From: Raillietiella orientalis
Taxonomy: Eukaryota
NCBI GenBank assembly: GCA_036172245.1
Contig: JAYWIR010000025.1
Location: 1,674,001-1,738,000 of the forward strand
Length of the DNA stretch: 64,000 nucleotides
Direction of reading: 5' to 3'
Shown: positions 3,001 to 58,614 of the stretch, one piece after another
Layout: each line of letters opens with the position of its first letter
Numbering within the stretch: position 1 is the stretch's first letter
Made by a program: the position numbers and the translations under genes
Notes under the pieces: generated by a model
Database searches by the model: none
The model's input: the letters and a program-made list of their open reading frames with translations, nothing else
Told to the model about the DNA's origin: nothing

Positions 3001-6000
3001 TCCCAACGACCCTCGTCCATGTCGTGGAAGGCGCCGTTGTGGATTCGTTTCCCCGAGCCGTTTGCCGGCGGGGTAGGCAGTGATTCCCCGCTCCAGACGC
3101 GGGGCCGCTTCCACCACCTGGAGCCCTCGCGGCTGCCCTCTTTGGAGCAGGGTTGCCACCTCCTTCCAATCCCGCGCCCGTATCCTTCTCTCGCAAGCTC
3201 TGCGACCCGATGGTCGAAATTTTGCACTTTCCATCCGTGCTGACCAACAGGAAAGGAGGAGCGAAAATCGCTCTTGTCTGCAACTTTTTTTTCTTTGTTC
3301 TTCCGATGCGGATGCGCTCTGCGGCGCCAAAAATGCAGGCTGAACTTGCACTTTCGGCCTCTTGTCAGAGCTCCAGAGTTGCCCCACCAGAGGCGAGCAC
3401 ACCTGCCACGGGGGGGTGCGACAGCGGGCGTCCCCCCCCTCCCCCCGAGACGCCAATGACTGGCTGGACGTCCGCCAGCACGCTAGGTTTCCCTCTGGCT
3501 CTCGGACGAGTGCGTGACGTGGGCCGATAGGCAGTTCTGAGGGAGATCCTTGGGAGCGCGGGACGCGAACCCCAAAGACCGGTCGTACTGCCAGCCGCTG
3601 CTGCAGCGCCTCCGCCTCGGCGGTCCTTCTGCTGCGGGCCGAGCGCCAGCGTACACCGGGTGATAGTCAGTGCACAGATGACACTGAGGATTCGAAAGGA
3701 ACATCTCTCGGCACGGATGACCCAGTTTCATCAGCAATCCGACTGCTGCTGGCTGTCGTTACCCACTTTCCAAGGACACGAGAATGATGCCCACTATCGA
3801 GTTTCGGGTGCCGCTGCAAGTGGAACGGATCTGATTGATCGGGAACGGGCAAAGTCCACAAGTCGAAGCACTTCCGAAAGCCGCGAAGTTGGAAGGATCC
3901 GGAATCGGACATCGGTCAAGCCGGCAGTCTCCTTCCGACGTGCAGGAAAGTGGCGAGGTTGATCGCACGTTGTGTGCAGGTCCTGCGTGCCGAACGGGCG
4001 GATGCTGTCGGGAGAGGAAACGACCCAGGAAGATCGACCCTTGAACAGAAAGGTACAATTTTCGGCGGGGCGCGCAAACCCGTAAATTCAAATCACCGCT
4101 CCCGCATGAGGTGAGAGGGGGGTGGGAAACCCTAGGAGAGGGGAGCTGTACACAGGTGTCACGCGTGAGTTGCACGGCAACGAGATGAGGAGGCAGCAGC
4201 TTCTTGCGAAACTCCCGAAGCGCTCTGCCAAGTAAAATGCGTTTCCGAAATCTGGCTCCATGGAAATTCCCTGGCTCCTTGCATCAACGGCCTGATGGAA
4301 AAAATTAGCATTCTAATGTGCATCTCTCACGCGGCTGCTCTGGGAGGCCTGCATGCAGTTGGGCGCACGCGCAAAGGGAAGCAGGAAAAAAAAACTGCAA
4401 GAACACAGAAAACATGACATTGCGTGTCCGTTCATCTGTGATGCGCGCATAAAAAGATTTATGTACAGACACATATTGCAGCAAAAAATACCTTTTTTTT
4501 TTTTTTTCTTCTTCTTTTCTTTTCTTTTTGAGGACAGATTACCAAACACAGAGAATCCGAACACAAATACAAGGGTAATATAATGTAATACAAGGGGAAC
4601 ACTCACACACTTATTGTGTACACATATACAACAAGCTGTGTAGCCAGAGAGCGTCGGTGGGAACACGGCAAAGGTGATTCCTTCGATTGCCGAACGACGG
4701 TCACTACGCCGGCTGCAGAAGAGCAAAATCCCGTTCGAAACACGCGGCGCAGAGTGTAGGAGTACCGCCGCCACAGTTGGCACAGAAGAGCATCCTCTGA
4801 CCTCCCTTGGACCGCATGGTTTCCTGCTTGAAATCTCCAGCGATTCGGCTGTTTGGTCCTCAGAATGGGAAACCCTGAAAAGAGGAAAACGTTCGTTGCG
4901 ACCGGATCCCGTAGAGAATTCCGGAATTTGCCTCGTGATTGAGGGAGGACCTGGGAGCTTATTGATTTCTTTCGGGGTATGCCGACAATGAGGGCATTTT
5001 CGCTGTACCCCCACAATTTCGAAACTTGCGATCTCCGCACTCGCGAACCAGAGAATCCGACAAAAGTTTGGTGCCACTTCGACATTTTCGTGTGCGCTTC
5101 CAAGCTTTACAGAGCCAGCAACGCGCCCCTTTACGCACCAATCCTCCAAAGGTTTTTTTTTCCTTTTTCTTCGGTCCTCTCATAACTGGAAGGATAAGCT
5201 CAGAAATCCCCACAAAAACGAACGACAAACTACGGAAATTCATGCAGTTTACCTTTCCGCTCACCAAGAGGAAATGATAATTTTTGAAAGAACTGGGAGC
5301 ACCTGCCCTTCGGGCACTGCTTTCGCGTACCCTCAGGCTCTCCTTCCAGAATTCCCTCCTGAAAGAGGAAACCGTCGAAAGATGGAGCGCCACATAGCAG
5401 TGTCACCACCTGCCTTGGGAGGGAGCACAAGAGACACCTACAAAATTTCAAACACTTCCAGCCGCGCTGCGCGTTTGTGCTCCCTTTTGTCTTCCCTAAT
5501 CGTGGATCTGCCAACCCATGCAGTTCGGTGGAGCCGGCTGCTGAAATATGAAATCTGGACCATTCCGCCGGGGCTCTGAAAGTCTGTGATAACCCAGAAT
5601 CGCAAGCAGAGCAAGGAAAGACGAGTCTTCCCGGTCACGGGCCAGGATCAGATTGCGCGAGCACGACGAGGTCGATCGACGAAGCCTTGACGCGAACTCG
5701 TTTCCCGCGAACACATCCTGATTCAAGCTTCCACGTTCCAGGCATGCTGCGAACGAAAGCTAACCAGGATCAGAGCCGCAGAGTTTCTTTACTTGGTGAA
5801 GAAGTCGAAGACTTCTGACTTCAATTCACTGCGATTTCCTAGAGTCAGGCTTTACCATTCAGAAATTTCCGGATTTTGTGTGTGTGTGTGTTTTCGTTTA
5901 TGTTTAGCCTTGACGACCCGATTTTATTAGTCAGGCAGTCAGCGCTTGCCAACGTGTGTTTCCTTAAGAGGGCATCAAACTCTCCCCTGAGGGGGGGCAA

Positions 6001-8306: not shown

Positions 8307-11300
8307 TCATATGATGAGCTCTGTGTCACCCAACTCTTCTTCGGACGGCAGGGTTGCTGCAACGATCTCGGGATCAACAACATTACGATCGATATACGGA
8401 AGACCTAACTTCTCTCGTCTATGCAACTCCAGGTAAGCCTCTCTCATGGACCAGTCACGCAATCTAATCGAGAAAACATTTCATGACTTATTGAAAAGCC
8501 AAAGGGAACACAGAAGAAATCTGAAATACATTCCCAGTGAGCAGAATTAACACAAAGCAGCTTATTCTCATTCCGCAAGAATTTCAAAACACGGAACTTA
8601 CACGCGTTTGCGAAAAGCTGTACGCAACTCTTATCATCACAAGTAATTTTGGATGTTTGCTTGAGAAACGAGTTTCCAAAAAAGATACTTTAGAAAACAT
8701 GAAAAACAAGTTCATCTGTAACAAAATACTTTACACAACGAGACGATTTTCTCTCTCTCTCTCTCTCTCTCTCTTTAAGATCTTTCGATGGAACACAATT
8801 AAATTATACATTCACCTTAATTCCACTCATGTTCTGATCATTAAATTTTCATCATTGCGATGAGCTCGCTGCAAAGTTGCGGGATATAATCGATCCTTAT
8901 GCAAGGCTAAGATACAAGAGGGAAAAAATCGCAAACAAAAACGTACGTAACGTCTGCAACACATTTCAAGCATGGCAAATACAATGATGCAAAAAAAAAA
9001 ACACAAAACACTTTTGGATTCAGTTCAATCTTCAAAAGACGAAGAGATGCATTAACGATCCATTGATGCCTCACGTACTCGGGAATGGCCGGATTGAGAC
9101 ATTTCAATTTGGAGAAGGATATTTGCCACTTACATCGTGCAAACCATTTTTGGACACTCGAATCCGAAAAGGATGCAGGTAACAAAAGCCCTGGACCTCG
9201 CCACATGGATCAACAGAAAGTCTCTTCCGAAGACTTTCTCTGATCTGAATCGCAACATTTCCAAAGCAGAGGTAGGAATTTCTTGGCTTTGGAACATCGA
9301 ACCAATAAGGCGAAGTTCATCGTGTGTTCAGAGTTGAGAGTTCAGAGTATCCTCTCGGGAAGCTGTCTCCAGAAAAGTGAATGGTTCCAGGAAATGACTG
9401 TGCATGAAATGTGTCAAGAAGCAATGAACGGCGAAAATGCAGAGGATTTCACAAGATTATTCATTCCTCAAGATGAAACACGAATGCTACATAAAAAACG
9501 TGGACATTCACAAAGCCCAACAACTCACGGCTATGGCAAACCTCCAATCCTTACTTCCTTAATCTTATAAAAATCTTTGCTGCTTAATCTCATCCCAAAA
9601 CGGCCTAATGTATTGAGAAAGTTCCCAAATGTGTATTTCCAAAAAGAATGCTTAGAATCATACAACTCGATATATTTCTTCCACTTTAATATGGTTTCTG
9701 ACCATAGAACGAAAAAAAAAAATACCCTATGAATCGCCAGTAAAATTTGGAAACATCAAAACTGGAAGAAATTCAATATGGGAGAGCTTTCCAGCTATTT
9801 CAGGTCACGGCCACTTGTTATGGCAAGCAATTTTCAACACCGAATTTCTGATCTCGATCTATACCATCCCTTCTTTTTATAGTTTGGAAAGAGTTATCAA
9901 CCCCTGCAAAGATGCTTTGATAATTTGAATCGTAATCTGTTTTCTCCAAAATCTTAATCCTCCCGAGTCATCATCAGTCTTCATACCTATTATACCTTTG
10001 TTCTGTTTCAAAACTCACATTGATTGAACATTTCAATCTTCATTGATTCCAAACCGTAAATACTCTCACTTGCTCAAAAGGCAAAAAGTATTAATGATGA
10101 CTTCTTTGATGACGTTCCTCACCTCAAGACTATCACCTACAAAGCCTCATGTTTCTCTGTTTCTATTAATGACAGTCTAATCAATCAAATATCCACCAAG
10201 TGATGTGACTGAACAATGAAGAATCTACATTTTTTTCGATCTGAACCTTACAATAAGCTGCATCATGTCTCCTCTTTGAATGACAATGATTCAGGAGTGA
10301 ATACTGTATATCAAAGAGATATTCATAATTTTGCAATAACCAGAAATTCTTCAATCCCTTCAAATCTTTTCATTAATCTCAAGTCCAAGGGGCACTCGCA
10401 TATATCCACATTATGAACGAATGAATCTGATCTGCAGCTTGCTGCTCCCATAAGGATAATTCCAATTCCCTACTCACCGTCACTTTTCGTCATGAACACC
10501 CACATCAGAATTCATGCTGCATGTGATAACTTGTAGTGTAACATTGGACAGTGAGACTACATCCCACTATACACTTGAAGCTTCTTGTTTAGTAGCAGTA
10601 CCCCTGGCTACCTCCAAAACTATCTACGAATTACTCTTCCTGTTTTTTGAATCTACCAATCATGCATGAAGCTAAAAGAATGTCATCTCTGTACAAAAAC
10701 TTCCTGAATATCTCAAATGGCACATCATCTGCCTTTTCTACTACTCACGTCTTGAGATGCCTCTCTGATTAAGTACCAAGACAATTGAAGACAACTGAAG
10801 GTTTTCCGCAATAATAGCTGCATGAATGTAATAATCACTATTGACATTACGGTAGTAATTGTGCTAATAAATGGTAAACGTACATTCAATATAAATGTTG
10901 GAACACTTAAGACTAACAAACCTAATTACATTTTTTTCCAGTCTTTTTCTGGTGCAAACATTTTGGATCTTGTTTTTCTCTTAATGTGCTGTGTGCAGTT
11001 TGATCCAGATTTTGGGATTCAATCGTAATTTTTTTTTAACAAAATTTTGCGCAGGCTTGTCTTAATGTCTTGGTTTCTGTACACCTTAGTCTCAGAAAGT
11101 AAATATAAATAAATGATAGTTGCTTTTTCTTAAAATAATTAAATTCCAAATAAAAAATCGTAGCTGTGTTACTACTTAACGAAAGATAAACAAAAACAAC
11201 AAATGAACCAAAGAAGAAAAAATTTAAACCAACTATCTTTGAGTAGCACTAAGTGCTACCTGAAGTTCTAATTCTTTTCTGAAGTCCCACTTTTTTGGGT

Positions 11301-13146
11301 TCACACTCAATGAAGAATATCAATAAGTAAATGAAAATACAAAAACATTCATGTTTCATCAGAAATCGCCTGTGACTTGTTGCATTCATGGATACACCAA
11401 TAATGCTGTCATTTTTTTGCATCAACTTGAATGCATCATTTGATACCTTGTCCGTAAATCACTGTAGAAATTGAAGAAAACAGAGTAAACAACCTAGAAT
11501 ACTAAGAAAAAGCAAACCAATTCATTTCTCAGCAGTCTTAGTTCATGATGCTTCTTGCATTTATCACTGGGGAAATGAATTTAATTGCTCAGTGAAAGAT
11601 CACAGAGAAGTAACGGTTTCTGCACCTGATTTCTAATTAGAAATTTTGTGTATTTGAATCTATTTGTTAAAATGGTACTGAACATGTCCCACACTCCTTT
11701 TTCTGTATTTCCATCATAATCTGTGAAATTAAAACACAATTAAATAGAATCTCTAAACAGCCATGCACATTAGAAAAAACTGAAGATGGAAACTGCATTC
11801 ATCATTAAAAAAATAACAATTGAAGCACTGACTTCAAAATCATCCCAAATGGCTTAGAGAAACATGATGTGAATCTTTGTAGGAGTATGCTTACAGTAAA
11901 AGATTACAAAGATTTGCAAAAACATTCATCACATAGAAGGGATCAATTGACTGAAACAATATTAATACCCTTCTCCATTAACAAGAGAAAACCCATTATC
12001 CATGCAGTTATGAGCTTTCAGTGATAAACGAAAGTTCTTTAGTAAAAGATTGCAACAAAATGAAATAGCAGGTGCAATAACTTTACCTAATTAGGAGATT
12101 TAAAGAGATCACTATTAAGAAGTGTAAAGGTCATTGATCTAAGCTAAGATTTTTTATTTGGAATTTAATTATAAGAAAAAGCAATTATCATTTATTTATA
12201 TTTCCTTTCTGAGACTAAGGTGAATATAATTGCACAGAAACCAACACGACATTAAGACAAGCCTGCGCAAAATTTTGTTAAAAACAAATTACGGTTGAAT
12301 CCCAAAATCTGGATCAAACTGCACACAGCACATTAAGAGAAAAACAAGATCCAAAAGAGTTTGCACCAGAAAAAAACTGTAAAAAACAAATATTATCACA
12401 AATATCCAAATGGAAATAACAATAGAATAATTACATACCACACAAGTGGGAAAAAAATTAGAAACATTTTTAAATGATACGTTAAATGAAGCAAATGTGA
12501 AACCGATATAAGCACGAGCATTCTATCGAGGAATTCTATTCAGTAGCATAGTATACTATCAAATAATAACCAGGATGAAAAAAACTCTTTCAAAATAGGT
12601 CTTGTAGATAACTAATCTTGGAAGCAAAACAATAAAACACATTTTATAAAGCCATTTTTTGAGTTTCTAAAACAAAAACAAAAAATGAATTAAAGTTCTA
12701 GCACACGATAGCTATGATCACATCAAACACATAAAGCACAAACGTTCTTCGCAACTTACTACTGGGACCTTCAAACATGAAAATATTAAAACATTGTAAT
12801 GTTCTGAGTTATCGACTGCTTACCCCATGTCCGGCAAGTGCATTGCAACGAAAGTTCCAAGCACAAGCATGAGTGTGATTCCTGTAAACACACCCCGATG
12901 TGCAAATTCTCGATCCTTTTGTTCATCTTCATAACTGTATCCATAAGAATACCAAAGCTTAACAACGGATAAAGGTACTCTAAGTTTGGTACTTACCTTC
13001 AAAGGTTTAAATTTTGCTTTTTCTGGAAGATTATTGGCACTAGATATATCCTGATTTTCGTTTTTGGATGTCTTGGATATTCTCCTACATAAAACAGTTG
13101 AAGCACAAAAACGTGGAAAAGTTTTCAATGTCAGTTGTGTAATCAT
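8307..13146 (-). CDS. NDUFB11: NADH dehydrogenase (complex I) 1 beta subcomplex subunit 11 (ESSS/NP15.6 family), about 146 aa, 3 exons
   Basis: Spliced model complement(join(8307..8463,12824..12957,12997..13146)) = 441 nt with GT-AG introns in consistent phase. Basic N-terminal presequence-like segment, WYSYGYSYEDEQKD, a hydrophobic TM (GVFTGITLMLVLGTFVAMHLPD) and the family-typical C-terminus GLRDWSMREAYLELHRREKLGLPYIDRNVVDPEIVAATLPSEEELGDTELII*. The 39-nt intron 12958..12996 is in frame and stopless, so it is the least certain part. Confidence 0.93.
8749..8773. repeat. (CT)n microsatellite
   Basis: Uninterrupted tctctc... run in NDUFB11 intron 2. Confidence 0.9.
10931..12386. repeat. Long inverted repeat (arms about 10931-11165 and 12142-12386, spacer about 1 kb) in NDUFB11 intron 2; possible non-autonomous foldback/MITE-like element
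   Basis: Left arm ...ggatcttgtttttctcttaatgtgctgtgtgcagtttgatccagattttgggattcaa... is the reverse complement of right arm ...ttgaatcccaaaatctggatcaaactgcacacagcacattaagagaaaaacaagatcc.... The match continues for about 230 bp with few substitutions and indels. No clear TSD. Confidence 0.9.
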
Positions 13147-16100
13147 TATGGTTGCTTTCTTCTAGTATTCCTTATAGCATCCCATCTTACACTTAGCAGA
13201 ACGGATTCTTGCGGGAATATGCCAAGTTTCTTTTTCAGGTACTGCTGCCTCAATTTCACATCCCACCATCTGTAACAGCCGAAACAGGGTGACCCCATTG
13301 ATGTCTCTAAAGATCCATTAAATCGTACAATTTATTTGTTAAATTATCATGCTTTTCAGAATTTATGATACTTTTGCTGGGATATTTAATGCTGTTCTGA
13401 AAGCAGAAGGCCAAAAACCTTGTACTGTTTAATTCATAGAAACTCTTAACGGGGTAAAGCATTCAACTTATGTTGAAATAATGGAAGGAAGTCCATAAAG
13501 TTTTCGATTCACGAAATTTTTCATTCACAGAAATACATATATGAAATAATAAGTTCTTGGATTTTCATTACATATTAGAAAAGCATTCAAGGAGCAATTT
13601 AGTTTCCTCGAGCTACAACCATTCTGCACTTGCTGTCTGCATTGATATTTTGTGTCTTAAGTAAACAGCACTTGATCATTGTGAGGAAAAGCTTCATGTT
13701 CTTTTAAAGAGTTGTAATCTAACGCAAAGGTAAGCAGTCAATATGAATCTCTGCAAACCACCTTTGTGTGGTACTATTCTTCAAAAAGGGTTTCATTTGC
13801 ACAAATCATTTTTCAGCAATCAAGTCGTAGAACCATCAGTTTCGTATTCTAAAATTGGTGCTTCGATCTTGAAATACGTCTGTTGAATTTATTTAAACGA
13901 TGTTAATGATCAGGCGAGACATTTGACCTGATAAAGGAAGCAGTTTTAAAGAGTTGATTCCAGAATTGCACAGCATATACGATTCCATGTTTCCGTACTC
14001 CATTCACCAAAGTCCTTAGATAATGACTATTTTCATTAATGACTATATTAACGACTATTTTCAAACATAGATACTCAAGACGTCCATCAATCAATATAAA
14101 TCTTGTGCTGAAACCTGTGATGCTCCTACAATAATAATTCTGTAATTGTGTTCATCCAGCATATACGTCCTCAGATGGAATTTCCTGGAGTCAAGACAAA
14201 AGAGAATAAATTAAGTGTTTTTTTTCTCTCAAGAAGGTAAATTTATTTCATCAGACTTCAAAAAGATTTCTGTAATCATCCATAAAAATTTTGCCTAAAA
14301 CTTGAATGATGTGTTTATTTTATTTATTCTTTTTTACTTTGTCTACTTGCTGTTCACTTCAGTTCTCAGTTCTCTGAAATAAGCGAATCTAATTTTCGTT
14401 TTATTTTGGAATTTTTAAGATTCTGAATAGCATGATTAGAACTTGTTTCAAATTCAGAGAATTTTTGTTATGACTTTCATTCATCAGAAATACGAGCTTA
14501 TGACATTAGAATAGACTTCTGCTTATTACCCCTAAAATGTCCATCATTTGATTTTTATACTTTTCTTCTTTTCTCTTTAGTAATCTTCATTTCAATCTCC
14601 TAGGAAAGAATTATAGGATTCTGGAATACGATATTTTGAAAATATTTAGACATAATTTCCTATCTGGTATTTTGAATTTTCACTTCATTATCTGAATCCT
14701 ACACTGAATTAAAACTGCAAATTATTTATTCGAATCCCAGTTTAGAATGAGAAAATGCTTGGGAACTGTTCTATTGGATGGATTAGAGTATGGCATTATT
14801 ATGCATAAGAATTACTAAATAACTTTGCAATGATAGATTAATTACTGTCAGTGCGAAATCTTTCATGCTTATGTACAGACATTCCTGTCATCCTAAGTCA
14901 ACAGCTTGAAATCACTAGCAAAAATTTGGACACTTCAGCATCCAAGGACAAGAGACAAGAGTGTTTCGGTGAAGGCATCCCTACTCTGAAGTATCCGAGA
15001 CATATCTTTTCAAATCTTAACAAAACTTGCGTTTGATTGGAAGTTGTCAAAATAAAAAAAAAACTTTGAAAGCCGAGTTTTTAAAGTCTACACATTCATT
15101 TGATGTCAAATCAGAAAGCAGAATACCCTCCTCATTTGTTAGAGATCAAAGCAATCTTCAAGTAACTGTGTGAATGTTTATTAATGATTGAAGTTTTCTT
15201 TGAGATGCATTATCTGCCGTGGGTGCGGTTTTCAATGATGCACTCGATTTTTATTCAGATCATGAATCTTTTGTTTTGCATGTAGCCAAAGAGCGATACT
15301 CTGAGACCCAAATGTGCTCTACGAAGATGATTATGGGTAAACTTGGTAAGCAGAATCTCTGAAGCAAGATGGTTAAATAGCGAATATGGTTTAATAACGA
15401 AAGGGAATAGTGTGTTTATTTTCTCGGTGATGTGACACATATTCCTTAGGTGAGCAGATGATTTCAGGAATCGCATAGATCACATCGCACATCGATCTGC
15501 GTGGAAGTTCAAATGAAACAACTTTTTAGATTCTATAGAAAAATCAGTTGTTTTCTGAAAGATACCAGGATTAAATGAATTAAGGAGAATGCTTTTTTCT
15601 CCTATGCCAAAATGGAGAATGTTCTCTTGTGGAATTTCATGCTTTCACACGAAACTGAAGGAAGCTCGAAAGCAACAGTTTCGAGGATTCTGAAAGCAGT
15701 GTTCTTTATTCTGTGCCCGTGTCTATATCATAACTTTCATTGGCACTTTCCGGGAATGTTTGTTTTGAGCATAGGGGTTTGGTATAGGAGCAGTCTCCAT
15801 TTGAGGCTTCCTTTCGTCGTGAATATTTTGTGACGTATTTTTAAGGTGGCATAAAATGCTGGAAGTGTTTTCCTCTAAAACATTCAAAAAATGCACAGCG
15901 TTCAAATCGAACTGGCTCCTTGCATGAGTTCCTTTCTTCCTACGTGTAATACAGTGCGGTGCCTGCTGTTATAGAAAGATTCTTACACTCTTTCCATACC
16001 TTCTTTGTGTGATCTGTAGCGTATTGAGCGTGATACATTCTATGTAGTGGTTCAATGCACTGATTGCAGCCCACTCAATCACATGGGTTCACTCATTTTG

Positions 16101-17377
16101 GTTCTACATGCTGCTGACATAGAATGCAAGGTCTTGAAGAATTCTTTAGAAAATAAGGTGAAATTTGCGAAACTACGATTGAATGTATTTTTCTTGTATT
16201 CGAATTTTCGCGCCATAGCTAAGTTATGATACCGTAGATTTCCTTGCATTCTGTACTTGTACCTGGTTCATTGATTCGATTCCCAATAAGGACGCTATAA
16301 GAGCGCCAAAACAACACGAAGAAATGATGAATTTATAAAATTACATTCAATCTACATATGTACGTAGATCCTTGTTCTCATCCCAGAGTTCAGCTAGTTT
16401 GCTTCTTCCAATAACCATTTCGAAGAAACCTCGTGGAAAACTTATACTTGCTACTCTTTTGAAAACTCTGGTCTCGGCTAATCGTGCTATGAAGGATTTC
16501 TAATTGAGTCCTGCAGGTCCCAGAGGCGGTTCATGAGGTTTAAATTTGGCTGTTTACTGAAAAGCACAGTGCTACCCCTATCTTGCCATCAGAATTAGAA
16601 ATCGTCTTGTGGGAAACAGTGAAAAGGTCGTATATCGTAAATTCTTATTCATTTTCATGACTGTAGGATAAAAACACATTTTCTTCTGCTTTCATCCTAA
16701 GAATATAAATAAGAATTTCAATTTTGCTGTGCACGCTTTAGAAGTGATCGAGTAGGATTGGAACCACCTCTGGATGAATACGTGTGTTTTTTTGGCGTAA
16801 TGGCAACACTAGATGACAAAGCCACTATTGGAATCTTCTATTCTCAGATTAAATCCTCTATTCCAGAAAGCTTCGTCAATAGCGTAGAGATTTTGTGAAG
16901 TGGCCAGTACTTTTTCCCCATACGATCTAAGATTGAAAATTCAGGAAATTGCTTTCGCATTATATTAAAAAGGTGGCTTCTATCATTCACTATTTTGGTG
17001 ATTTCTTCATAGAAGCTGAGTCCAGTGCTTGTGTTTCCTATGTTACGTTTGCGTTGATTTTGCTCCTCATCAGTGCTGGAAGAAAAACAAGAGCAACAGT
17101 TGCATCTTGTGAAAGTAGGAAGTAATTAAAACTAGTGCAGTGGAACGAATCTGCCGCTATTGTGAAGCAACACTGGAGGACTGCTTTCCAAAGTTCGTAG
17201 TTATGTGTTTATGACAACGTATGCAGAGCAACTATCACGGCAGTCACTAGAGGTTTCATGTCTTAAATTACTGATATCGGATTAGCTGGAAAGTGATAAA
17301 CCCAACTAAACGGATGTTTATCAGATTAGAAAATCATTATAATGCAGCATTCCTGTGCTCACCACAATCATATTCAT

Positions 17378-18348
17378 TTTGCCCGCGTCGGAGGGCTTGT
17401 GGTTAAGGCTTTCGGGTGTGGCACCATGAGTCGCGGGTTCGAATACTTCGGCAGAAACTCTGACGCCACTGCGTCGTCGAGTTCCGAGTTTCTCCTGCAA
17501 TGGCGCTGGTTGGCCGCGACATTCGGGCGTGGCACCGGCGGTGGATTAAGCCGGAGGCCCCCGATGAAAGCCGGAACAATGGAAGTCGACCTTCGGGTCC
17601 TCCCAGGAATCAAGGAGTGGGGAGTTCCCCCTCCTGTCGTGCAACGGAGAGCGGACCCCCCCACCGGGGGACACTCCGAGTCGTCTCTTCACAGAGTGCA
17701 CAAGGAAGCGAGAGCGATTCCCTGCGGGAAGCTGCAGCGCCCCTTCTGAGTTTCGGAAGCGTCCCTTCGGGGTTCTCTTCAGAGGAGTGAACAGGAGCGG
17801 TTCCCTTGCGGGTTCCCTCCGGAGAAGTTGAAATGAAGTTGAAATGGAGAGGACGGCCCCTCCCCATTGGGGGGGGTCCCTCCGGAGAGAATGAGGAAGG
17901 AGATTCCCTTCGGGGTTCCCCTTCGGAGATAACCAGGGTGGGAGGTGCGATCCCCCCGTCCGGGGGGATCCCTCCCCAAGAGTGAGAGGAACGGACTCCG
18001 AGCCCTTCCTGGATTCATAGAGCGGACCCCCATCCCGGGGTGCCCCCTGTCCTGAAGAAATTACACTGAAGAATTACACGCATCCGTGTGGGTTGCCGTG
18101 GGCGGAGGGGCGTGGAAACAAAATAGTGTGTTTAATGTTTAAAAAAGAGCCACGTGTGCCGCGAGGCACGCGACTGGCTCTGAGGTACTTAGCGAACCAA
18201 AAAAAAGAAAACTTAAAAAAAAAAAGCTGAAAGAAAAACAGCGAAGTCAGAAGAAAAAGAAGAACCTAAGGATTTCCATCGTCCTAGGGCAATAGTAACG
18301 ATCTCCTCGTGGGGGTCGCTACTGGCCTTTTTTTTTAAAAAAAAAAAA
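17378..18348 (+). mobile_element. Full-length tRNA-derived SINE-like retroposon (copy 1) with TSD and poly(A)
   Basis: Starts GCCCGCGT at 17381, B-box GGTTCGAATAC at 17436-17446, GC-rich hairpin body, 3' hairpin 18294-18323, T9 at 18328-18336, then an A-run. Flanked by the direct repeat AATCATATTCAT at 17366-17377 and 18349-18360. Homologous to copies near 31 kb, 41 kb, 58.5 kb and 59.5 kb. Confidence 0.85.
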
Positions 18349-20764
18349 AATCATATTCATAAGGACAGTTTCCCACAAATACAGCACATCTCAGATCAAG
18401 GAGGTCCAATTCGTGGCTTCTTACGACCGTTGCGTTGTTGATTGGTGTTAGATCTTTCTTAGCATCTTTTCTTAGCTATTTTGTCGTAGTTTTATCCTCC
18501 TGTTACCATGTAGTCTCACGTCATAGTACAGTCTTTACAGTAGTCATGATGACTAAGCATTGACAGGGGCGAGCAGCAAATAGAAGACATGAAAAGAGAT
18601 TATCTGAACATATAAGAAATACTTTCAGAGAATTGGCAAATGTGATAAGAATACATCTTTCTTAGTTAAGAATCATGTGGATGAATAAAAAAACTGATAC
18701 CAGTGTGGGCAGACTAGAAAAAAAAAAGAATCTCCCCTTAATGCTGTCTGTGCTATCTTAAACCTGCAAAGTGAGAGATGAGTGCTGGAGGATTCATAGA
18801 GAGAGAGGAGAAAAAAAGAGCAAAAAGAAAAAAATTAATTGGAAAGAGAGAAAGCCAAATGATTTCTTGCTTTCCAAGAGAAAAACAAGTCTGTCTCTGC
18901 CTCCTTTTGACATTTGATATAAGAAATCGAAATGCTAAATCACCAGCTCTTTCAGATCACTCGCGAGTGGCTCGAAACTTTAAAAGTGAATCTTCATAAG
19001 TTCAAACTAGATGAAGAGACAGTTCCATAATTTGAAGGTTAGGCAAATTTCCTGCATTTATCTAATACAAATTACTGAGATTGTGGCTGTCAAGTGATGC
19101 AACTCGAACCGAGTCCGTGTCTGTTAAGTAAAACAAATATCTTCCACGACCTATTTTCTAAGAAAAACATGCCACTACAACCAATTTTGCAAGAACAGAT
19201 ATGCCTTGCTTTAAGAAAGAAACGTAGAAAGAGAGAAGTTGAAATGCTTATCCCCTACCATTCCAGACAACGGAATTGTCGCTACTCGTAGACCTTAATA
19301 CCTGGTATTTTCCTGCTTGGATTACCGTCTCTGTTCCAGAAGTTCTTGAAGTTTTATAAGAAATCCAATAGGTGTTTCCGACGTAAGGCTTAAAATAAGA
19401 TTGTCTCTCAGCTTAATCAAAGATTCAGATTTTATGACCAAAAATTCGACAAGAGCTATCTGAATGACATCAAACTTGATTTTTGGTCGCGAGTTCGAAG
19501 GAACCAAACATCAATGAGAGCAATAACTCCATCAAAAGTTTTAGAGGCAGTGTTGGATGCAAGTGCTAAGAAAATCTCTCCAAACTGATAAAAGGTGAAA
19601 CTTCAGTATCCCGAGAGTTGTTAAAATCGCGGACGCTGGCGATTTGAATGAAAGAGGAGAAAGCTGTTCCTGGGAATAAAACACCAATGGATCAACGGAT
19701 GCTGGAGTGGGTTCTAAACTTGATGGACGTTCTGAACATGATGGCTCCACGAAGAAAATGGGGTTAAGGCAACTGGGATGAACACTGATTTATGGCAAAG
19801 CTCTCAGAATTTTCTAATGAGTACTCCCTCATTCGAAGATTTCAAGTTATTCGAATATCTGCAATTGCCCTACATACAAAATCTGAATTCTCTGGAAATT
19901 ATGCATCAAAGGTCCAATTGAGACGGCGTTTGTGTTAGCTCTGAAAAATCAATCAACGATGGCTATCCTCATTGCCTAAATGAAAAGCACGAACTAGTTT
20001 ACACCCCCTCGAGAGTTACGAAAATGCACCGATAATTATGTATCTAAAAGCATTGTGTAATATCTGCGGCTATCCTCGATTTTGAATATCTTCATCAGAA
20101 TCTGAAAAGTTTTTATGCAGCTGCTCTCCACGCTATGTACAAACAGCTGTTGCAAGGACTTTCAAGTTTTCTTTTTGAAATTCCTACGGCACTTGCATTG
20201 ATTTTTAGGTTTCGAAATATTTACTGATTGACTTTTATCTGCAATTATTATGCACGGATCACGTAACAGACAAAAGAACCTGCAAAAGGTTGCTGAACAA
20301 AACACCATCAAAGAGGTTCTACATTTTTGGATCTTGAGATCTATGAATTCGAGTACGTAACTGATGTGCATACTTCCATCAACTGCTAATAAACTATTTG
20401 ATCAACAGTGCTATTCATTTTTCTTTTTTTTTCATTATTTTTAGAATAATTTTTTGCAATCTCCTGGGTAAAGACGGATATTCAAGAAAACGAATTGACG
20501 AAGATTCTACCCATCATAGGCACAGACATCTGGTTTTGCCATCCAACATTAGTAGACATGATATGGGCTACGAATTAGAATTCATATTGCAATCCATCAA
20601 GCATCCCATTGGATAAGCATAACTCAAAGGTTGAAAAATGCTGCTACGATTTGAACAGTCGGTCTGAAGACCTAGTCCATAAAATACGATATGTTGGATC
20701 CCAATTTTGACTTGGGATCACATAAACTACTCCCAACAAAAAGTGGAACGATGCAGTACTGTTA

Positions 20765-23700
20765 TCATTTATGACGATGCTTTTGAAACAACAAAGATTT
20801 GCGTTTCTTATTTGGAGAAACAGTTTCTGTTCTGTTATGCTTCCGTTTCTGGGGTTTCTTTTGTGATGGGGTTGTATTTTCTGTTGGATTGGACTTGACA
20901 TGGTTGGAAAGCTTTTTAAGTTTAGCAACAAAAAAACCATCCATATTATGTAAATGAGGATAAAAGCGCCGAGTCAGTCTCATAGTGGGGTGGAAGCTAA
21001 GAAAAGTACTGATTCTTTACTTTATACAAAGTAACTTACCTCCAAGTCCGATAGCGGCAAAAACCTTCTTCACCAAAGTCAAGACCCATGGGAACTAGCT
21101 TCACATCTCGCTTCTTTAGGGCATACTCAATCACTCTTTCATTTTCCTCAGGCTACAAATACCTACACTCATATTCAATGAAAATACTTCAGTTTTCTTA
21201 CCAATACTGAGCAAGTTGAATATACCAAATACCCTCCTGTTTTGGAATTGCTATTCAAACAATCAATGGCTGACAAAATCAACTCCTTCTGCAACCGAGC
21301 ACACTTCTGTATATCTTCTTCTGCTTTACTGATTTTGACAGAAGGATCCTTGGAAATTACTCCTGTTCCACTGCATGGAGCATCTAACAAAACCCGATCA
21401 AATCCTTTTTGTATCTATAGCATGAAACCAATGATTATGGCACTTGAAAGCTATAAAGTACTCACTTTGTGAAATTTCCGTCCATCAACAGCAGATACCA
21501 CCCCTTGTGTAATACCCATCCTATGGAAATTACCTACTATGGCATGTGCCCTTTCTGGGTGAATATCATTGGCAAATAAAACCCCTGTATTTCTTTGCAA
21601 GGCAGCTAAGTAACCGTCTTGAGAGCTGACAAAGATAATTCACTCACCAATATATGTAGCTTTGCCCCCAGGAGCTGCACACAAATCTAATATTTTTTCA
21701 TCCTCTTGTGGAGCTAAGGCCATAACTGGAAGAAAGCTGGATGCTCCCTGAAGTATATAGTGCCCAGCCAAGTATTCTGGAGTAGCTCCAACTGGTACTT
21801 GGGAATCATAAATAACTAACCCTACTTTGGACCATTTCTCCAAAGGATCCAGATTAACTCCACGATTAATCAAAGCCTTCCAGGACTGAGGGTAACATTC
21901 CTCAAGATTATGCCATCTGTTACCTGTGCCAGGTCACGTCTACGTGTCTTCAGCGTATTGGTGCGTATGGTGACTGGCCTTTGCACTTCATTGGCTTCTA
22001 GGACCTCAAGAAGCTGAGATAATGGGAATAGTTTCATGAACTTGTTCATAAGGAAATTATTGTAAGAATAATATATACATAAATCCTTGCGTAAATCCGC
22101 CAGATACTCAGCTCGGTTCCTGAAAGAATCCATTTTCATCCAATCATGCCTCAGAATCATAACATACTTTAATGTAGAACGGTTTTTGAAGTCCAACAAG
22201 ATCTCCATGGTTTCCTTAATTCGCTGATACACCTCTGGCAGAGTGATAGCCTTCTCTGATTGTTCAGCAGACTGCTTATTAGGCTCATGTGTGTGCAGAA
22301 TTGGAAGTTCCCTAAATGAATCAATTCATGTTTAAGATTAAGAACTTACAATTAATAACTCACTATGTCCTGAATTCATGTTTCAAGTAACTACATTCAC
22401 TTCAAGCATGCTTTCATAATTCAATAAATAAATAAATAATGCATGCAGTTTGCATGCACCATAAATTATGGATTTTATGTTGATTAAATAACAATGACCA
22501 AGCAATCACATTGACAAGATCAACATTTTGAAACAGATCTAGAACCTGTTTCTCGATATGCCACATGCCCCACACCTAATGAATCATACTGCTAACAACC
22601 ACAAGGTAAAGAAAACAAAGGAAAGACAAGAAAAATACAAACATCTTCTAATCAAGGAATGTTTATCACTTTATTAAATAGGAATGATATTCAGAAAAAA
22701 CAAAATTCAAAAATATATAAGAGAGCATATCATCAATAGCATTTGTACATGTGAATGTACATGTACAAATGGAATTTTCAAGACTTATTTGTATGCATGG
22801 TATTACAAATACCAAATACCCAGAGCACAAAATATAAATACCTAGTACAGAAAGCATCAGTCACTTGGTCTTCATAGACAACCATGAGTTCCAAGTACAT
22901 GATTAGCTATCATGAATTAAATCAAAAGTTCATGCTAAAAGCAATGAAGCTTTTAAAACTTAAGGAGGAAAAAATGATGAAAAATGAAAAATCTACAAGC
23001 ACAAAAAATGCATACACATATTCATAACGAACAAGATGACACTAATTGATTAAAGAGGAAACATGCAATGTATGGAACCTGAGACCTGAGATCACATTGC
23101 AACTATTAAATACGAATCGTTAGAAATAAACACAAGATTATATGGTTAGGTACTGTAAAAACTATTAGTAAACATTGTTGAGCTCTTAACTAAGGGATTA
23201 TCAGTGGAAAACTTCATTGCATCTTGTAATTTATAAAGATTTTATAGTCCTTGCATACAACTCTTCTTTTTGGTGATTAAATATAAGTTTTGATTTTTAA
23301 ATCAATGGTTCAAATGTACTAACATGGAAGTCTGCTCATCCTGGGTTTCCTCATCGCTCACATCATTCTGAGTAACAATATTCATATCTTGATCACTTTC
23401 GGGAAAGGAATCCAAAGAATCATTTCCTTCAGAGTCCCAGTCCAAATTTTCATCTAAAAACCGGATTGGATAAATGAACTCACTTTAATTTTATTATTTG
23501 GTTCTACTAAATTTTTACACTAAGGCATACACAAAAACACTTGGTCTCAATTGTATTGGAAAGTTGCTTCACATACCTTGGGGTATTTTCTTTTTGAATA
23601 TTGAATGCGTTGATTTAGAAATGTTTCCATTTAGCAAAATTTTCGATTCTTTGCTGGTTTCATCTTTTGAAAAAGAAAAAGTAACTTTCTTGACTGGTTT

Positions 23701-27100: not shown

Positions 27101-30100
27101 CCCCAAATGTAAGGGTATATTTATTTCCTCTTTCTGCGAAAGCTTTCACAGTGCAGTTTAGTTCCTTGAAGGCGCAGCTGCAGTAAAGAATTTAGCTTGT
27201 TTTCATCCATGTCGTTTGTAACACTTCCTTGTAGAAACCGGCAGGTGCTTGATCATAAGGGGATTGAAAAATTATTTGCCTTGGTCATTTTTGGATTAGG
27301 GTGTTCTTACTGATTAGTTACTGGAATGCCCTCGAAAAACAAAGTGGCTACTCTGTGGCACTGAATTTGTATTTCCTAGCATTCCCTCCAGAATGACCAC
27401 TTTAATTTTAATCACAGGGGTCACTTTTGTCGCGCTTCGCTCATATAAAAGCTCCGTGATTTATACGTTCCTGTTTCCGTGACAATTTAATATTAAGTCA
27501 GTTTTCCTCATTGGCAGTTTGTTCTCATAGTTCATTCGTTATTCGCAAATCATGTTTCATAAGATTCCCAAGAGCGGCCTTTTAGTGTCTCAGCGTGTGC
27601 AGGATGACATTAAAACACATCAGCAGTGAGATCTATGATGTTTTTGTTGGTTCCTCTTGCTCGCACCGTCTTTTATGAATTCAGAGTTTTGAACGAATGG
27701 AAATGGTCTACATAACTTACGGGAAGCTGGATGAATGCCTCGTGGTATCCCACGCGGTAAATGAAGATCTCGGTTGAGTTTGTGGAATCATGCAAGAGAG
27801 CTGCAGTGCATGAGGATCGTGTTCAACGCAGTAACTCTTGAAGGCGGATGTCCTCTTGTTTGACCTTGTAACTCACCATGTGTGAAATGCATGTTTACTG
27901 CACGCGTTTGCAGTTGAGCAGAGCAGTTGTTTATCTATTTTCTACTGCAAAAAAAAAAAAAACTACACATATAGATTTGCAGCCTCTTTCGAAGAAGTTT
28001 CGTGCAGGGTGTCCTTGGTGCACCTGATCAATTTCTTGGGCCACATTCCGAAAAATTCTGGTAGGCTCCTTGCCTCCCATGAAGCAATGCTGCTTGTTCC
28101 AGTACAGAATCATTTGATTCTCCCGAAAGCCGCCCCGATGAAGGATGATTAGAGGATGATTAATGATTGTGATCAACAATGATTCGAAGAGGAATTTCAC
28201 TTCATTTTCAGGTTCGTGAAATGGCGAGCTCCACGACGTCTGTTCCTTTCCCTTCGCATTTCGTGTTCCTTTTCCCGCAGTTGACATTCCGGGAGGAGAC
28301 TCTGCACTCCTTGCTCCCTGGCTGCGTCAGTTCGTAGAGTGCGCGCTGATTTCATCTCGAGAGGGCTGTTGTGCACATTCTGGGACAAGCCCGGCGTCTT
28401 CCTCTTGCCTGAGAACCTGCTTTAATCTCCGGAACTCCTCACGAAATCACTTAGGCCCTTGTCGCTTTCCCTCTGGCGCAGCTGCGTGCAAAGAGTGGTC
28501 CTCATCTAGTGAATGACTCGGTTGGGACGTTTCGAACACTCGGCCAACGGAAGGCCGCGTAAAAGCAGCGGGGTTCGACATAGTTGAGCCTGGGAAAGAT
28601 TGAGGCCAAACAGCCTCATCTGAGTCCGAGGCGGAGATTCCACCGTAAGGGTGGGGCAAGGCTATCAAAGGGTCCTGTCAATGACAGCCGGAGAAATAAT
28701 GTGGCTGGACCTCTGGAGAAATAGGAAGACGCTTAAAGTGGAAGAGGGAGACACACGGCGGCAGAGATCTGCAGTCCGCGACCCATAGAGCCTGTGCTGC
28801 CATGACCACCGGTGTGTTTCGGAGTTGTCACGGGAGGCCGGAATCAGGGATCCGGGATGCGGTAAGTGGTCCCACGCATGAAGGGCAAGAAAATGTAGAG
28901 TGATGATGCCTGAAGAGATGCAGTTTCCTGTGATCAAGACCTGGCTTGAGGAATCCGAAACGCTCCGTATACGAGGAAGCAGCGCCACTTCCCTGGACAA
29001 AGAGAAGTTGTGGATGCTGCAGGAAAGTGTCGATTCCCGGATTCAAGGGATGGGAGGAGGAAAGGAAGCTCCCGAAAGATCTGCTGGGGCCAGCCCCACT
29101 GGCATAGATTCCTCCTGGATCATCGTCTGTTTTCGGAAGACCTGAAGCCAGGAAGCCGTCCCAGGACGCAGACCGCACCTGCATGCAGTGGCCACTTCCT
29201 CCTGCGCTTTATCTTTTTCTGTCTCTCCTTCCGGATGGTCATCCGTCGCGCGCATGCCATGGGGGAGAGGGAGAAGAACAAACTCTGAGTCCCTCCCTTG
29301 TCGAATCTTCAAAGGATGAGCCTTCCAGGAACGCTTTTGAATGAAGAGCGTGACCTCGGTAAGAGAAAAAGAAAAGCAAGGAAAGGCGGCGTGCCCAAGA
29401 ACATGAACTCTTTCCACCAACGAAGTTGTCCCTTCTCCGGCGTCCCCTCGTGTGGAGACCGTCAGAGCGGCTCAGGATCAGGAAGGACGGAAGAGGAGAG
29501 CGCCTGGAGACTGACGAGCGAACCAAGAGATCGCCAGCGGATCCTCTGGAAAGACGATCTCTAATCCAGCCTCCTACTCTCCTCGATCCCAGTGGCGGAA
29601 GCATTCGCTCCTCCCCACAATAGAAAGGAGAGAGACGGGAGCAGATGGTTCAGTCTGGCGGCTGGTCCTTGAACTCCTCCCTCGTGGAGGGAAGTTCTGT
29701 GGGGGCTCATCGGGAAGTTGCCACCTGGAAGTGGTCTGTCAGGTCGTGTGAGCTCAATGGCGAGTTTCAAGCCGTAGATGGTTGCACGTTCTGGGGACGC
29801 CCTCGTGGGTAAGGAAGGAGGCCTATGAGCTCAGCTTCCTTCATCATCCCCCATCCCATCTCTTTTTTCCCTAAGCGTCGCAAATCTTCAGGAAGACCGT
29901 TTGGCGCCTCATCCTCCAGGCCCACGGAGACGGAAGCTGCCTGAAGGAGGGGCACACGCATCCCTCGGCCGGAGCCCCTTCCCCATTTTCTCCACCTTTC
30001 CCCTGCTTCAACAATAGGAGGGGCGCTCGTGGATGAAAATGTATTGCACGTCGGTTCCGCTGGGCGTCTCTGCGTTCACTTCAAGTGGCAAAAGTGCAAC

Positions 30101-30458
30101 ATCTCCTACAAGACGCGCAGGCGGCTCCATGCCGCCTCCGGGCATCGGATTTTTTTTCTTTCTCCCCGGGAGGGGAGGCAGGTGGCCGGCGGGAAGGGTT
30201 ATTACCTCCTGGGAGGAAGGCCGCATGCCCCCCCTCCAGTATGGGGGGGGGGCGCAGCCATGTCCTTCTGTCCGTCCTTCTGCAGAACGCAGCGGTGCTG
30301 CCTCGACGGGGGTCGTGTCAGGCCAAGAGCACTCCGAAGCGCACCGAGGTACCATGCAAGAGCATCCTTCGCGGCGTTAGAAGCGGGATGATGAGAGGGA
30401 AGAAGAGGGGAGCTTTTTGCAGGAGGAGGTCGTGCCTTGAAGTCTGTCCTGAAGCCCG

Positions 30459-56674: not shown

Positions 56675-58471
56675 AAGGTTTTCGGCTACTAATCTCTCAC
56701 TCTCTTTAATTGCATTGGGATGGCTTCCCATCTGTTCTTATAAAAGTTCATAGCTTGTTCAATGATACCAGCAAGAACACACACACACAAAAAATCGTGT
56801 GAAACACTCTCAAACCGAGGAAAGCACACCCGAAACACGTGTGCGTGTGAAATATAAACCAAACTCACATTCAACAAGATTTAGGGTCAATTTGATGCCA
56901 ATACTGGTATTTCGATTGGATCGGATCAGCACCTCTCGAAACATTCCCATCGAATGCTTTTTTCTTTTTCTGTAACGTAGTTAGAGAGTTTTCCAATCTC
57001 CTATTTATTACATTAATTCTTTAATCAGATAATCGTACCTCTCGTTTTCATCTTGGACATTACAGAAAGAAGCACATGCTTTTGCTTTGCTATATGTTTG
57101 CCTATCTCTTTTTTTTCTCGAGCTGCCTTGAATATCTGTCTTCCTGGTCTCCTTGATTAGTGGTACTCGTGCCACTGTGCCCACCCCGCTAAGACGCTCG
57201 TATCGTTTTGAGTTCATTCACCAACTCTGAAAACTTCTTCAAAAACGAAAGCTTCCTCGTTTCCCACAGAGATGGCAGTGAAGTGGACGGAATAAGGAAG
57301 CACTCCATAAAGAAATTCTTTAGTTAGACAAGGGACCTCTGACGTCCTTGAGGATGTTTGCTGGATGGAAAGGTTTTAAATGCCATCTAGGTTCCAAAGA
57401 ATGGTCCTGTTTCTTGAAGAGGACACGCAGGGAGGAAACTCATACTCCACTGTATCAGGGACCCCTTCAAAAAAAGGGTTACACAGCTTCACAGACCAAG
57501 TGCGAATCATTCGGGATTTCGTGATTGGAAGAAGCTGAGAATCTGGCTCCTTTGACCAAAGAGATCAAGTAACCCCATCGATGTTACTCGAACGACGCGC
57601 CCCTGCCATTCGAACCCACATGCCGCAAAATCAGGTCGCACTGCAGCCTTGTGCACGGGCAATATCGTAGCCGAGGAGGAAGACTGAGGCGCGATTATTG
57701 CTAGTTGAAAACTCAGGTTGCAATGTGGTATCCTGGAGCCACCCGTACGGATGAAGGACGTCATCACCCCACCTCTCTTCTTTCTCGCTTTCACGAACCC
57801 CGGATCTACTGTTGGTATCTCTTCGGAGGATGGGCAAGAAGAGGAACGTCCTCCAGCTTGCTCGCAGCCTCACGGTCAGATGTCTTTGGCAGCAGGCCGA
57901 CAGATGATGGGATGAAGAATCGTCCAAGAGTCGATCTTGGCATCCGATAACCACCCACAGACCTTGGATCCTCATCGGCACCGCCGTAAGACGGCCTCCC
58001 CCCGCCTTTCTAGTTCCAGATCTTGGGGGAGAGGTGTCTCGTTAGCTCTTCCCGCTCGGGGAAGAGGATGGGATGGAGAGATCAGGAAAAGAGGGGAGGT
58101 GATCGAAAGAGAGGGAGAGAGGGAGAAGAAGGATGAGCAGGGCAGCAGGTGGCGAGAAGAAGAGGGCGCTTAGGAGCAGACGCGCTCGGCAGGAAGACGC
58201 GAGGGTGAAAGCTGAGCTGAACGGAGGCACCATGATGCCAGAGGGCAGACTAGGATTGCGGAACGGGTCCACGAGCAGCACGCAGAAAGGGGGGGCAGGA
58301 AACGGAAGGCTCCTTGGAGGACGTCGTCTAACGAGGAAGCGGCCGCGAGCACGGAGTTTTCCTACTTCGAGGGGAAAGAGGAGGGGGCGACTTCGCACTC
58401 TGGAGAGGCTATCGATCCACCAACTCCATGATGCTGCAGTCATGGAGTTGGTGGATCGATAGCCAAACCAA

Positions 58472-58585: not shown

Positions 58586-58614
58586 TCTTCCCGCAATACC
58601 GCAGCCTCACGGCT

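Follow-up and report, generated by a model that had tools for sequence, protein, structure and literature searches.

What kind of unit leaves a segment of roughly 950 nt that combines a tRNA-like head, several UUCG-loop hairpins and a poly(A) tail? We addressed this question for an element at positions 17381-18336 of a 64,000-nt stretch of contig JAYWIR010000025.1 (Raillietiella orientalis). This whole stretch is referred to as the window, all positions are window coordinates, and the element under study, which lies on the plus strand, is called copy 1. A first-pass annotation had placed it at 17378-18348 and proposed either a new long family of short interspersed elements (SINEs) or retrocopies of an unrecognised functional RNA. 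Our analysis indicates that copy 1 is probably a recent member of an arthropod family of non-autonomous, SINE-like retroposons that is lineage-specific. The first proposal, a new long SINE family, agrees with what was observed: the element has a target-site duplication (TSD), a poly(A) tail and a head with T arm and B box, 4-5 copies are found in 64 kb, and 99 contig fragments of an independent DNA run (X1) match it.

Boundaries, copies and head of the element

Without its A tail, the family sequence of copy 1 comprises 956 nt (Table 1). It ends in nine T residues (T9, 18328-18336) followed by an A-run (18337-18350), and the whole is enclosed by a perfect 12/12-base TSD (AATCATATTCAT, 17366-17377 and 18349-18360). 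Terminal hairpin, T9, poly(A) and 12-bp TSD had all been noted in the first pass and were all recovered. The two marks of a retroposon mobilised by a long interspersed element (LINE), a TSD (12/12 bases) and a 3' A tail (A12-14), are both found and point to LINE-mediated retroposition. The start had to be corrected by three bases. Independent copies in X1 begin at 17381 and are unlike the sequence before it, so the family 5' end was set there. The extra bases TTT (17378-17380) may stem from a 5' leader transcribed with the source gene or may have been added without a template. Orientation on the plus strand follows from the B box, the strand bias of the CTTCGG motif and the position of the A tail on the right; a minus-strand element is excluded by the same features, the motif bias being 14 to 0. 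A Helitron, considered for the 3' hairpin, is excluded by the 12-bp TSD and the poly(A) tail.

The collection of copies suggested earlier succeeded within the window itself. Searches with nhmmer identified 4-5 dispersed copies in 64 kb, including three to four older ones on the minus strand whose aligned blocks are 76-82% identical to copy 1. Copy 2 is the most complete of those older copies, with blastn blocks of 78-82% identity to copy 1; its candidate decayed TSD (GAACGGAGTG / GAACGGGGTG), read by eye, was too weak and was not used. It sits in the last large intron of a Cad96Ca-like gene, on the same strand as the gene. Exactly at the break of the truncated copy 3 lies a perfect 14-bp inverted repeat (GCAACCAAGGTTTG / CAAACCTTGGTTGC, 4-nt loop, 41263-41294), which may belong to whatever truncated this copy. 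Two further fragments, 59689-59493 and 58590-58391, probably represent a single interrupted copy 4. With copy 1 as nhmmer query they were matched at E 6.5e-05 and 0.028. They are split by about 900 bp of unrelated sequence (58610-59490) that starts with A-rich TTTATAAAAAAATAAAAG and looks like a later insertion. In the alignment, homology between copies spans the head, the body, the 3' domain and the A-rich linker and continues into the terminal module, so the whole ~950 nt constitutes one family unit.

Contigs of X1 were matched at a minimum of 80% identity. All 99 matching contig fragments fall within 17381-18310, with zero depth in both flanks. One contig is at least 99% identical, 18 are 95-99%, 39 are 90-95% and 41 are less than 90% identical. 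Copies of many ages thus exist in another sample, and they include coverage of the terminal module (18254-18310), the low-complexity end past 18310 having been skipped in matching. Together these data suggest many genomic copies, neither 4-5 per 64 kb nor 99 fragments being a count. After insertion, copies decay neutrally. In metagenome contigs a two-block pattern gave 0 matches. An 18-mer searched in metagenome contigs and a 17-mer searched in prokaryote genome contigs gave 19 loci each; these are chance matches since no blastn alignment extended past the seed (longest 39 nt).

The same head is found in each of the four copies extending to the 5' region. A B-box-like sequence (GGTTCGAA) is located at 17436 in copy 1, 56 nt from the first family base. 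Alignment of the four heads revealed a conserved GGGTTCGAATCC, equivalent to a T arm plus B box, with a 5-bp stem in copies 2-4 that is degenerate in copy 1; the B box reads GGTTCGAAT in three of the four heads and GGCTCGAAT in the fourth. The upstream part of the head (GCCCGCGT.GG...) has only poor A-box likeness. In the second module, the GACGC...GCGTC hairpin is unchanged in copies 1-3 and carries two mismatches in copy 4, and the enclosing stem varies in sequence among copies. Judged from this arrangement of motifs, the head may be an ancient tRNA-like dimer of which the second module is the relic.

Internal repeat and folding

All five CTTCGG motifs listed in the first pass are present (17446, 17591, 17765, 17908 and 17921), and CCGAAG does not occur in the element. 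None of 2000 dinucleotide-preserving shuffles of 17381-18327 reached five CTTCGG motifs (mean 0.41), and over all copies read in sense there are 14 CTTCGG and no CCGAAG. The motifs do not represent five separate events: they sit in one degenerate internal repeat, the body (17585-18065), which contains four of the five as well as a 15-bp hairpin (17940-17976). A body unit consists of a hairpin formed by a C-run, a 3-5-nt loop and a G-run, a TCCCTYCGGAGA-like sequence and a purine-rich spacer. Eight such C-run/G-run hairpins are spaced 40-75 nt apart in this interval. Mean pairwise identity among the ten units is 53%, compared with 39-48% in ten shuffled-unit sets. The units are too diverged for Tandem Repeats Finder, which listed four short low-copy repeats but missed the body array. 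Units have also been gained or lost between copies: a CTTCGGGGTT unit present in copies 2 and 3 is missing from copy 1, and copy 2 holds an extra CCCTT-TTC-AAGGG unit. The CTTCGG excess is therefore real and is accounted for by about ten degenerate 40-65-nt units, the recurrent motif having been inherited from an amplified unit and not invented five times independently.

The individual motifs are not maintained. Across the three-copy alignment, 12 aligned sites carry CTTCGG in at least one copy and one of these 12 is common to two copies; none of the five sites of copy 1 is kept as CTTCGG in copies 2 or 3. Replacements at the aligned sites (CTTTGG, CTTCAG, CTCCGG, CCTCGG and others) are mostly one step away, several of them of the CpG-decay type, and fit decay from a motif-bearing unit. 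The GCGA loop of the 3' domain likewise reads TCCA in copy 2. The first-pass annotation had named loss of the UUCG and GNRA loops without covariation as the outcome that would speak against a structured RNA, and such loss is what the copies present.

In the window as a whole, CTTCGG or CCGAAG occurs 58 times, so further decayed relatives may be hidden in its GC-rich blocks. The window is a mosaic (1-6000, 28000-47000 and 58000-64000) in which blocks of 50-69% GC alternate with spacers of 31-40% GC, and the GC-rich blocks contain, on either strand, many long open reading frames (ORFs) that have no Pfam match. The element itself contains a minus-strand ORF of 175 amino acids (17546-18073), also with no Pfam match. 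Long ORFs in the element and in the other GC-rich blocks are a by-product of composition.

The short UUCG stems noted earlier, GACC-TTCG-GGTC (17588-17599) and CCC-TTCG-GGG (17763 and 17906), are present, but the three hairpins are no stabler than shuffled sequences (z -0.75, -0.44 and +1.43). The longer hairpins fared better. The perfect 9-bp stem GATCCCCCC/GGGGGGATC (17949-17970) was confirmed and is lengthened by GGGAGG/CCTCCC to 15 bp; the resulting hairpin (17940-17976) has a free energy (dG) of -30.3 kcal/mol and a z score of -4.54. The GNRA-capped hairpin at 18146-18181, with loop GCGA, was likewise confirmed (dG -26.7 kcal/mol, z -5.51), and the terminal hairpin (about 18286-18329) before T9 reaches -26.4 kcal/mol (z -3.37). 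Folding of the whole element gave z -2.95 for the plus strand and -2.85 for the minus strand. Equal scores on both strands indicate palindromes at the DNA level and not a strand-specific RNA fold.

Covariation was assessed on the 3-4 decayed copies, a sample of little power in which post-insertion decay is silent on the master gene. RNAalifold yielded -87.7 kcal/mol with a covariation term of +1.41 for three copies and a term of +1.81 for four heads, positive values meaning no support. We further used the local minimum free energy structure of copy 1 (292 pairs, span at most 60) for a pair-retention test in which partners slid by 1-3 columns served as controls. In copy 2, 45 of 131 changed pairs are still pairable, compared with 45-59 of 121-145 in six slid controls, and 9 of 27 double changes are paired, compared with 11-14 of 29-39. 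For copy 3 the value is 26 of 72 changed pairs, compared with 27-34 of 60-82. The 79.3% of cells that are paired is an inflated figure, the structure being taken from one of the aligned rows. At the level of single hairpins, the 3' domain hairpin of copy 2 is homologous but poorly paired, the 9-bp hairpin is replaced there by a shorter, different palindrome, and one X1 contig has an 18-nt deletion at 17951, inside the 9-bp hairpin. Constraint could still act on the master gene only.

Rfam searches of the element and of the window gave no family match of note, and no Rfam ribozyme family was among the matches up to E 10 in 17000-18700. SINEs bearing a self-cleaving ribozyme are exemplified by the schistosome Sm-alpha type with its hammerhead. 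Neither of the marks by which a structured non-coding RNA is recognised, a curated family match or compensatory pairs, was found for the element among 3-4 copies. The hairpins belong to the repeat unit, at the DNA/RNA level, and do not form a conserved tertiary fold; for the body, none of these results speaks for a conserved fold. Elsewhere in the window, GC-rich palindromes at 62881-63013 and 38131-38245 weakly resemble, below threshold and on either strand, a number of unrelated microRNA precursor models; they are most likely simple hairpins and not microRNA genes.

Known retroposons and rival explanations

SINEBase defines a SINE as shorter than 1 kb, dispersed, present in at least 100 copies and at least 60% identical to tRNA, 5S or 7SL RNA over at least 60 nt, and lists 175 families with consensus lengths of 75-662 nt (mean 253) (PMC3531059). 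In size and dispersion (below 1 kb, interspersed, non-tandem) the element, with 956 nt and 4-5 dispersed copies, agrees with this definition. It also resembles tRNA SINEs in its head-body-tail organisation, B-box head, non-coding dispersed copies, TSD and A-rich tail; its head is too degenerate for a tRNA call by ARAGORN or Rfam. The quasi-oligomeric CHRS and CHR-2 SINEs of mammals, in which a motif of about 20 nt is repeated more than 10 times in tandem, provide a parallel for a degenerate body repeat whose number varies between variants, whereas the unit of the element is about 40-65 nt long and carries a C-run/G-run hairpin, the two being compared by description only (PMC3531059). A chelicerate SINE in the SINEBase reference list is Ruka of ixodid ticks (PMC3531059). 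The literature searched for four diagnostic strings of the element, for tick and chelicerate SINEs and for unusually long SINEs contained no description of the family. Ruka (Sunter et al. 2008) reportedly measures only about 200 bp, and the comparison with the element is by this length only. The family is provisionally undescribed, the sequence banks for repeats and SINEs (Dfam, Repbase, SINEBase) lying outside the comparison. It has two unusual traits, its length and a 3' end made of hairpin, T9 and poly(A) without AATAAA.

At this 3' end, the terminal hairpin, T9 and A12-14 all lie inside the TSD, so the RNA template carried a U run followed by A residues. AATAAA and ATTAAA are absent from 18250-18336. 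Copy 2 aligns AGTTAGGTT / GAACAAGAAC at the site of T9 and the A-run, which may be a decayed T-run/A-run. A similar order is known from T+ SINEs (B2, Dip, Ves), in which RNA polymerase III (Pol III) stops at an internal terminator and the transcript is then polyadenylated; they are reported only from mammals and require AATAAA plus beta and tau signals (PMC8466645). The element shares with them a tRNA-type head and a T run directly before the A tail inside the retrocopy, an order that points to termination followed by non-templated A-addition before reverse transcription. Of the features that mark a T+ SINE, AATAAA (18250-18336) is absent, and the terminator, a run of at least four T residues or TCTTT immediately ahead of the A tail, is present in the form of T9. 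Set against the same account, the element differs further in that T9 follows a stable hairpin and is not TCTTT, and in being about 5 times longer.

Taken together, the element is composed of a degenerate, putatively tRNA-related head, possibly once dimeric, a family-specific region, the GC-rich body, a 3' domain, an A-rich linker and the terminal hairpin-T9. The body probably arose by amplification and decay of a hairpin-bearing unit of about 45 nt, which explains why CTTCGG and CCC...GGG hairpins recur. In the likely life cycle, RNA would be made from an internal Pol III promoter and would end in T9, a Pol III-terminator-like run, behind the hairpin, so that transcription by Pol III would extend over the whole ~950 nt. 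It would then gain an A tail, and a LINE endonuclease/reverse transcriptase would copy it by target-primed reverse transcription, leaving the 12-bp TSD. According to SINEBase, A and B boxes indicate but do not prove Pol III transcription (PMC3531059). A more specific version of this scheme, an arthropod retroposon of about 0.95 kb that is transcribed end to end by Pol III, terminates at its own hairpin-T9 and is A-tailed without AAUAAA, is a speculative possibility to which we give clearly less than even credence. If true, it would represent a non-mammalian T+-style SINE, longer than any tRNA-headed SINE recorded so far, and an AAUAAA-independent route, e.g. via a non-canonical poly(A) polymerase, would feed Pol III transcripts to the LINE machinery.

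Several observations weigh against a SINE-like retroposon. Under the Alu-type model, which has a templated A tail and a Pol III terminator beyond the element, the internal T9 ahead of poly(A) is unexplained; this end needs post-transcriptional A-addition, yet there is no AATAAA. The first-pass annotation was correct that no TTTT precedes 18328, but this absence is not significant alone, shuffles averaging 2.8 such runs and 7.2% of them having none (P 0.07). The B box of the tRNA-like head proposed earlier stands, but no tRNA call supports that head: ARAGORN found 0 tRNAs in the element, and the Rfam tRNA model did not match the copy 1 head even in a 141-nt search. The Rfam tRNA, 5S and 7SL models did not match copy 1, and Rfam searches of the whole window and three heads gave no tRNA at useful score, a weak tRNA-Sec match of the copy 3 head (12.4 bits, E 6.8) being the sole tRNA hint among the heads. 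For the tRNA identity demanded by SINEBase, ARAGORN and Rfam served as proxies; in the head only the T arm and B box are clear, and "tRNA-derived" would describe a likeness in T arm and B box, not demonstrated identity. The evidence on copy number, 4-5 per 64 kb and 99 X1 fragments, is in neither case a per-genome count. No partner LINE was found in the window. Further, 12 pairs are changed on both sides, a weak excess over the slid controls (4-9) and the shuffles (6.0 +/- 1.8). In helix 5, the stem that encloses the second head module, this applies to 4 of 7 pairs, and no other helix has several double changes, so that some RNA-level constraint on the head modules is possible. Finally, 956 nt is long for a Pol III transcript and lies beyond the 75-662 nt of SINEBase, in whose list the element would be the longest member (PMC3531059).

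This length is also the starting point for a different reading, a composite retroposon of the SVA type in which the tRNA-like remnant is a fossil and the GC-rich array corresponds to a variable number of tandem repeats. Its RNA would stem from RNA polymerase II (Pol II) or from host-gene read-through, be polyadenylated and be mobilised by a LINE. Hominid SVA elements are non-autonomous, LINE-mobilised, GC-rich and at least 1 kb long, with a variable central repeat array, poly(A) and TSD; they are transcribed by Pol II, have a canonical poly(A) signal and consist of Alu-like and retroviral pieces with no tRNA-like head. The element shares the long GC-rich variable array, the poly(A) tail and the TSD and differs by its tRNA-like head. 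A size above the SINEBase range, a central degenerate array with unit numbers that vary between copies, the poor A box without a tRNA call, a T9 internal to the retrocopied RNA where Pol III would be expected to stop, and the location of copy 2 in an intron of a same-strand gene would all suit such an origin. The 3' and 5' ends argue otherwise: AATAAA/ATTAAA is missing from the 70 nt before poly(A), and the same head in all four copies reaching the 5' region, together with X1 copies that start at 17381, forms an internal-promoter pattern. The B box is also kept in three of four heads, and the young copy has no TTTT before its terminal T9, which is weak evidence. We consider a Pol II origin improbable. 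The same 5' end bears on an internally deleted, non-coding LINE derivative (5' untranslated region joined to 3' untranslated region) with a coincidental T-arm-like motif. The faint tRNA likeness and the lack of a Pfam-matching ORF in the element (ORF 17546-18073) would agree with it, and in its long, repetitive, GC-rich body and its structured 3' terminus the element may be similar to LINE untranslated regions. With the B-box/T-arm motif and stem conserved in four of four heads, a second such motif following, a constant 5' end and no reverse-transcriptase or endonuclease remnant, we regard this derivation as very unlikely. The search for remnants covered 219 distinct stop-to-stop ORFs of at least 90 amino acids across the window (of 240 found, the 21 left out overlap repeat copies).

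The reading as retrocopies of an unrecognised, functional, structured Pol III RNA of ~950 nt, whose UUCG/GNRA helices would be selected in a master gene, draws on a strand-specific CTTCGG enrichment (5 against 0.41 expected), on three long hairpins with z -3.4 to -5.5 and a whole-element z of -2.95, on the small excess of double changes (12 against 4-9), and on the helix 5 stem, which changes sequence and stays paired in copies 1-3. Several results stand against it: the opposite strand folds equally well (z -2.85), the UUCG mini-hairpins do not exceed shuffle stability, the internal repeat accounts for the recurring motif, covariation terms are positive and changed pairs are retained no more than in slid controls. 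Among the copies, copies 2 and 3 keep none of the five CTTCGG sites of copy 1, neither the GCGA loop nor the 9-bp hairpin is conserved, and gains and losses of hairpin units occur. Rfam gave no match. This part of the first-pass proposal is close to refuted, with the weak double-change excess as its remainder and only a slim chance of being right.

Genomic setting and significance

The window contains parts of protein-coding genes in addition to the copies of the family (Table 1). The tyrosine kinase exons lie on the minus strand at 30462-34743 and a cadherin-like piece at 37364-37717 (stop-to-stop ORFs). The best matches of the kinase exon are Cad96Ca of ticks (70% identity) and horseshoe crab (69%), followed by spiders, scorpion, insects and crustaceans at 60-68%, in a database that lacks the protein of the species itself. 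Since the kinase exon matches arthropod Cad96Ca receptors, the host is an arthropod, on this comparison perhaps nearest to chelicerates. A U4 spliceosomal RNA match on the plus strand (57645-57716; 58.6 bits against a gathering threshold of 46, E 1.8e-10, Rfam) covers 72 nt for a 138-position model and may be a truncated pseudogene or retrocopy, not a working gene. Just upstream of the ESSS/NDUFB11 exon, an inverted repeat (10961-11136 / 12168-12356) encloses about 1.0-1.2 kb of AT-rich DNA. Its arms measure 112 nt (97% complementary) and 62 nt (90%), and it resembles the inverted termini of a DNA transposon, or else a foldback element.

Table 1. Coordinates of the element, its relatives and neighbouring genes in the 64,000-nt window.
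Feature	Position	Strand	Basis or remark
Upstream TSD copy, AATCATATTCAT	17366-17377	+	same 12-mer at 18349-18360
TTT, three extra bases between TSD and first family base	17378-17380	+	X1 matches start at 17381
Head, putative tRNA-related remnant with B box GGTTCGAAT at 17436-17444	17381-17455	+	motif and head alignment
Second module, GACGC...GCGTC hairpin followed by degenerate B-box-like GGTTCGA(A/G)T	17456-17500	+	copy alignments
Family-specific region, GCTGGTTG..GGCAC..CCGGA.GCCCCCGATGA, conserved in copies 1-4	17501-17584	+	alignments, nhmmer
Body, about ten degenerate 40-65-nt units	17585-18065	+	hairpin spacing, unit alignment
3' domain with 15-bp hairpin 18146-18181, loop GCGA	18066-18190	+	folding
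A-rich linker, AAAAAAAAGAAAACTTAAAAAAAAAAAGCTGAAAGAAAAACAGCGAAG...	18191-18261	+	G/C-substituted homologue in copy 2
Terminal module, two hairpins, then T9 at 18328-18336	18262-18336	+	folding, X1 coverage
Poly(A) tail, A12 (A14 counting two A's of the TSD)	18337-18348	+	sequence
Downstream TSD copy	18349-18360	+	sequence
Copy 2, old, nearly full length, in intron of Cad96Ca-like kinase gene	31104-32044	-	nhmmer E 1.9e-44 (copy 1 query)
Copy 3, old, 3'-truncated (head and first half of body)	41297-41830	-	nhmmer E 1.7e-29 (copy 1 query)
Copy 4, head part	59493-59689	-	nhmmer E 3.4e-16 (copy 2 query)
Copy 4, probable continuation	58391-58590	-	nhmmer E 8.9e-13 (copy 2 query)
ESSS/NDUFB11 subunit	12823-13161	-	stop-to-stop ORF
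RsmB/NSUN-type methyltransferase	21643-22325	-	stop-to-stop ORF
Cad96Ca-like receptor tyrosine kinase gene	30462-38000	-	exons 30462-30761, 33860-34447 (short in-frame intron), 34420-34743

For genome annotation, the retroposon family described here is one to mask and catalogue: it is GC-rich, lies in introns and AT-rich spacers, and yields hairpins and long spurious ORFs, which invite confusion with structured RNAs or genes. It does not amount to a new functional RNA class. Its interest for transposon biology is modest: it stretches the accepted size range of tRNA-headed SINEs and carries a tail of a type so far described only for mammalian T+ SINEs, here without their AATAAA signal. Should young copies of the family generally have the T9-poly(A) end, this end would offer a tractable case for studying the A-tailing of arthropod Pol III transcripts.

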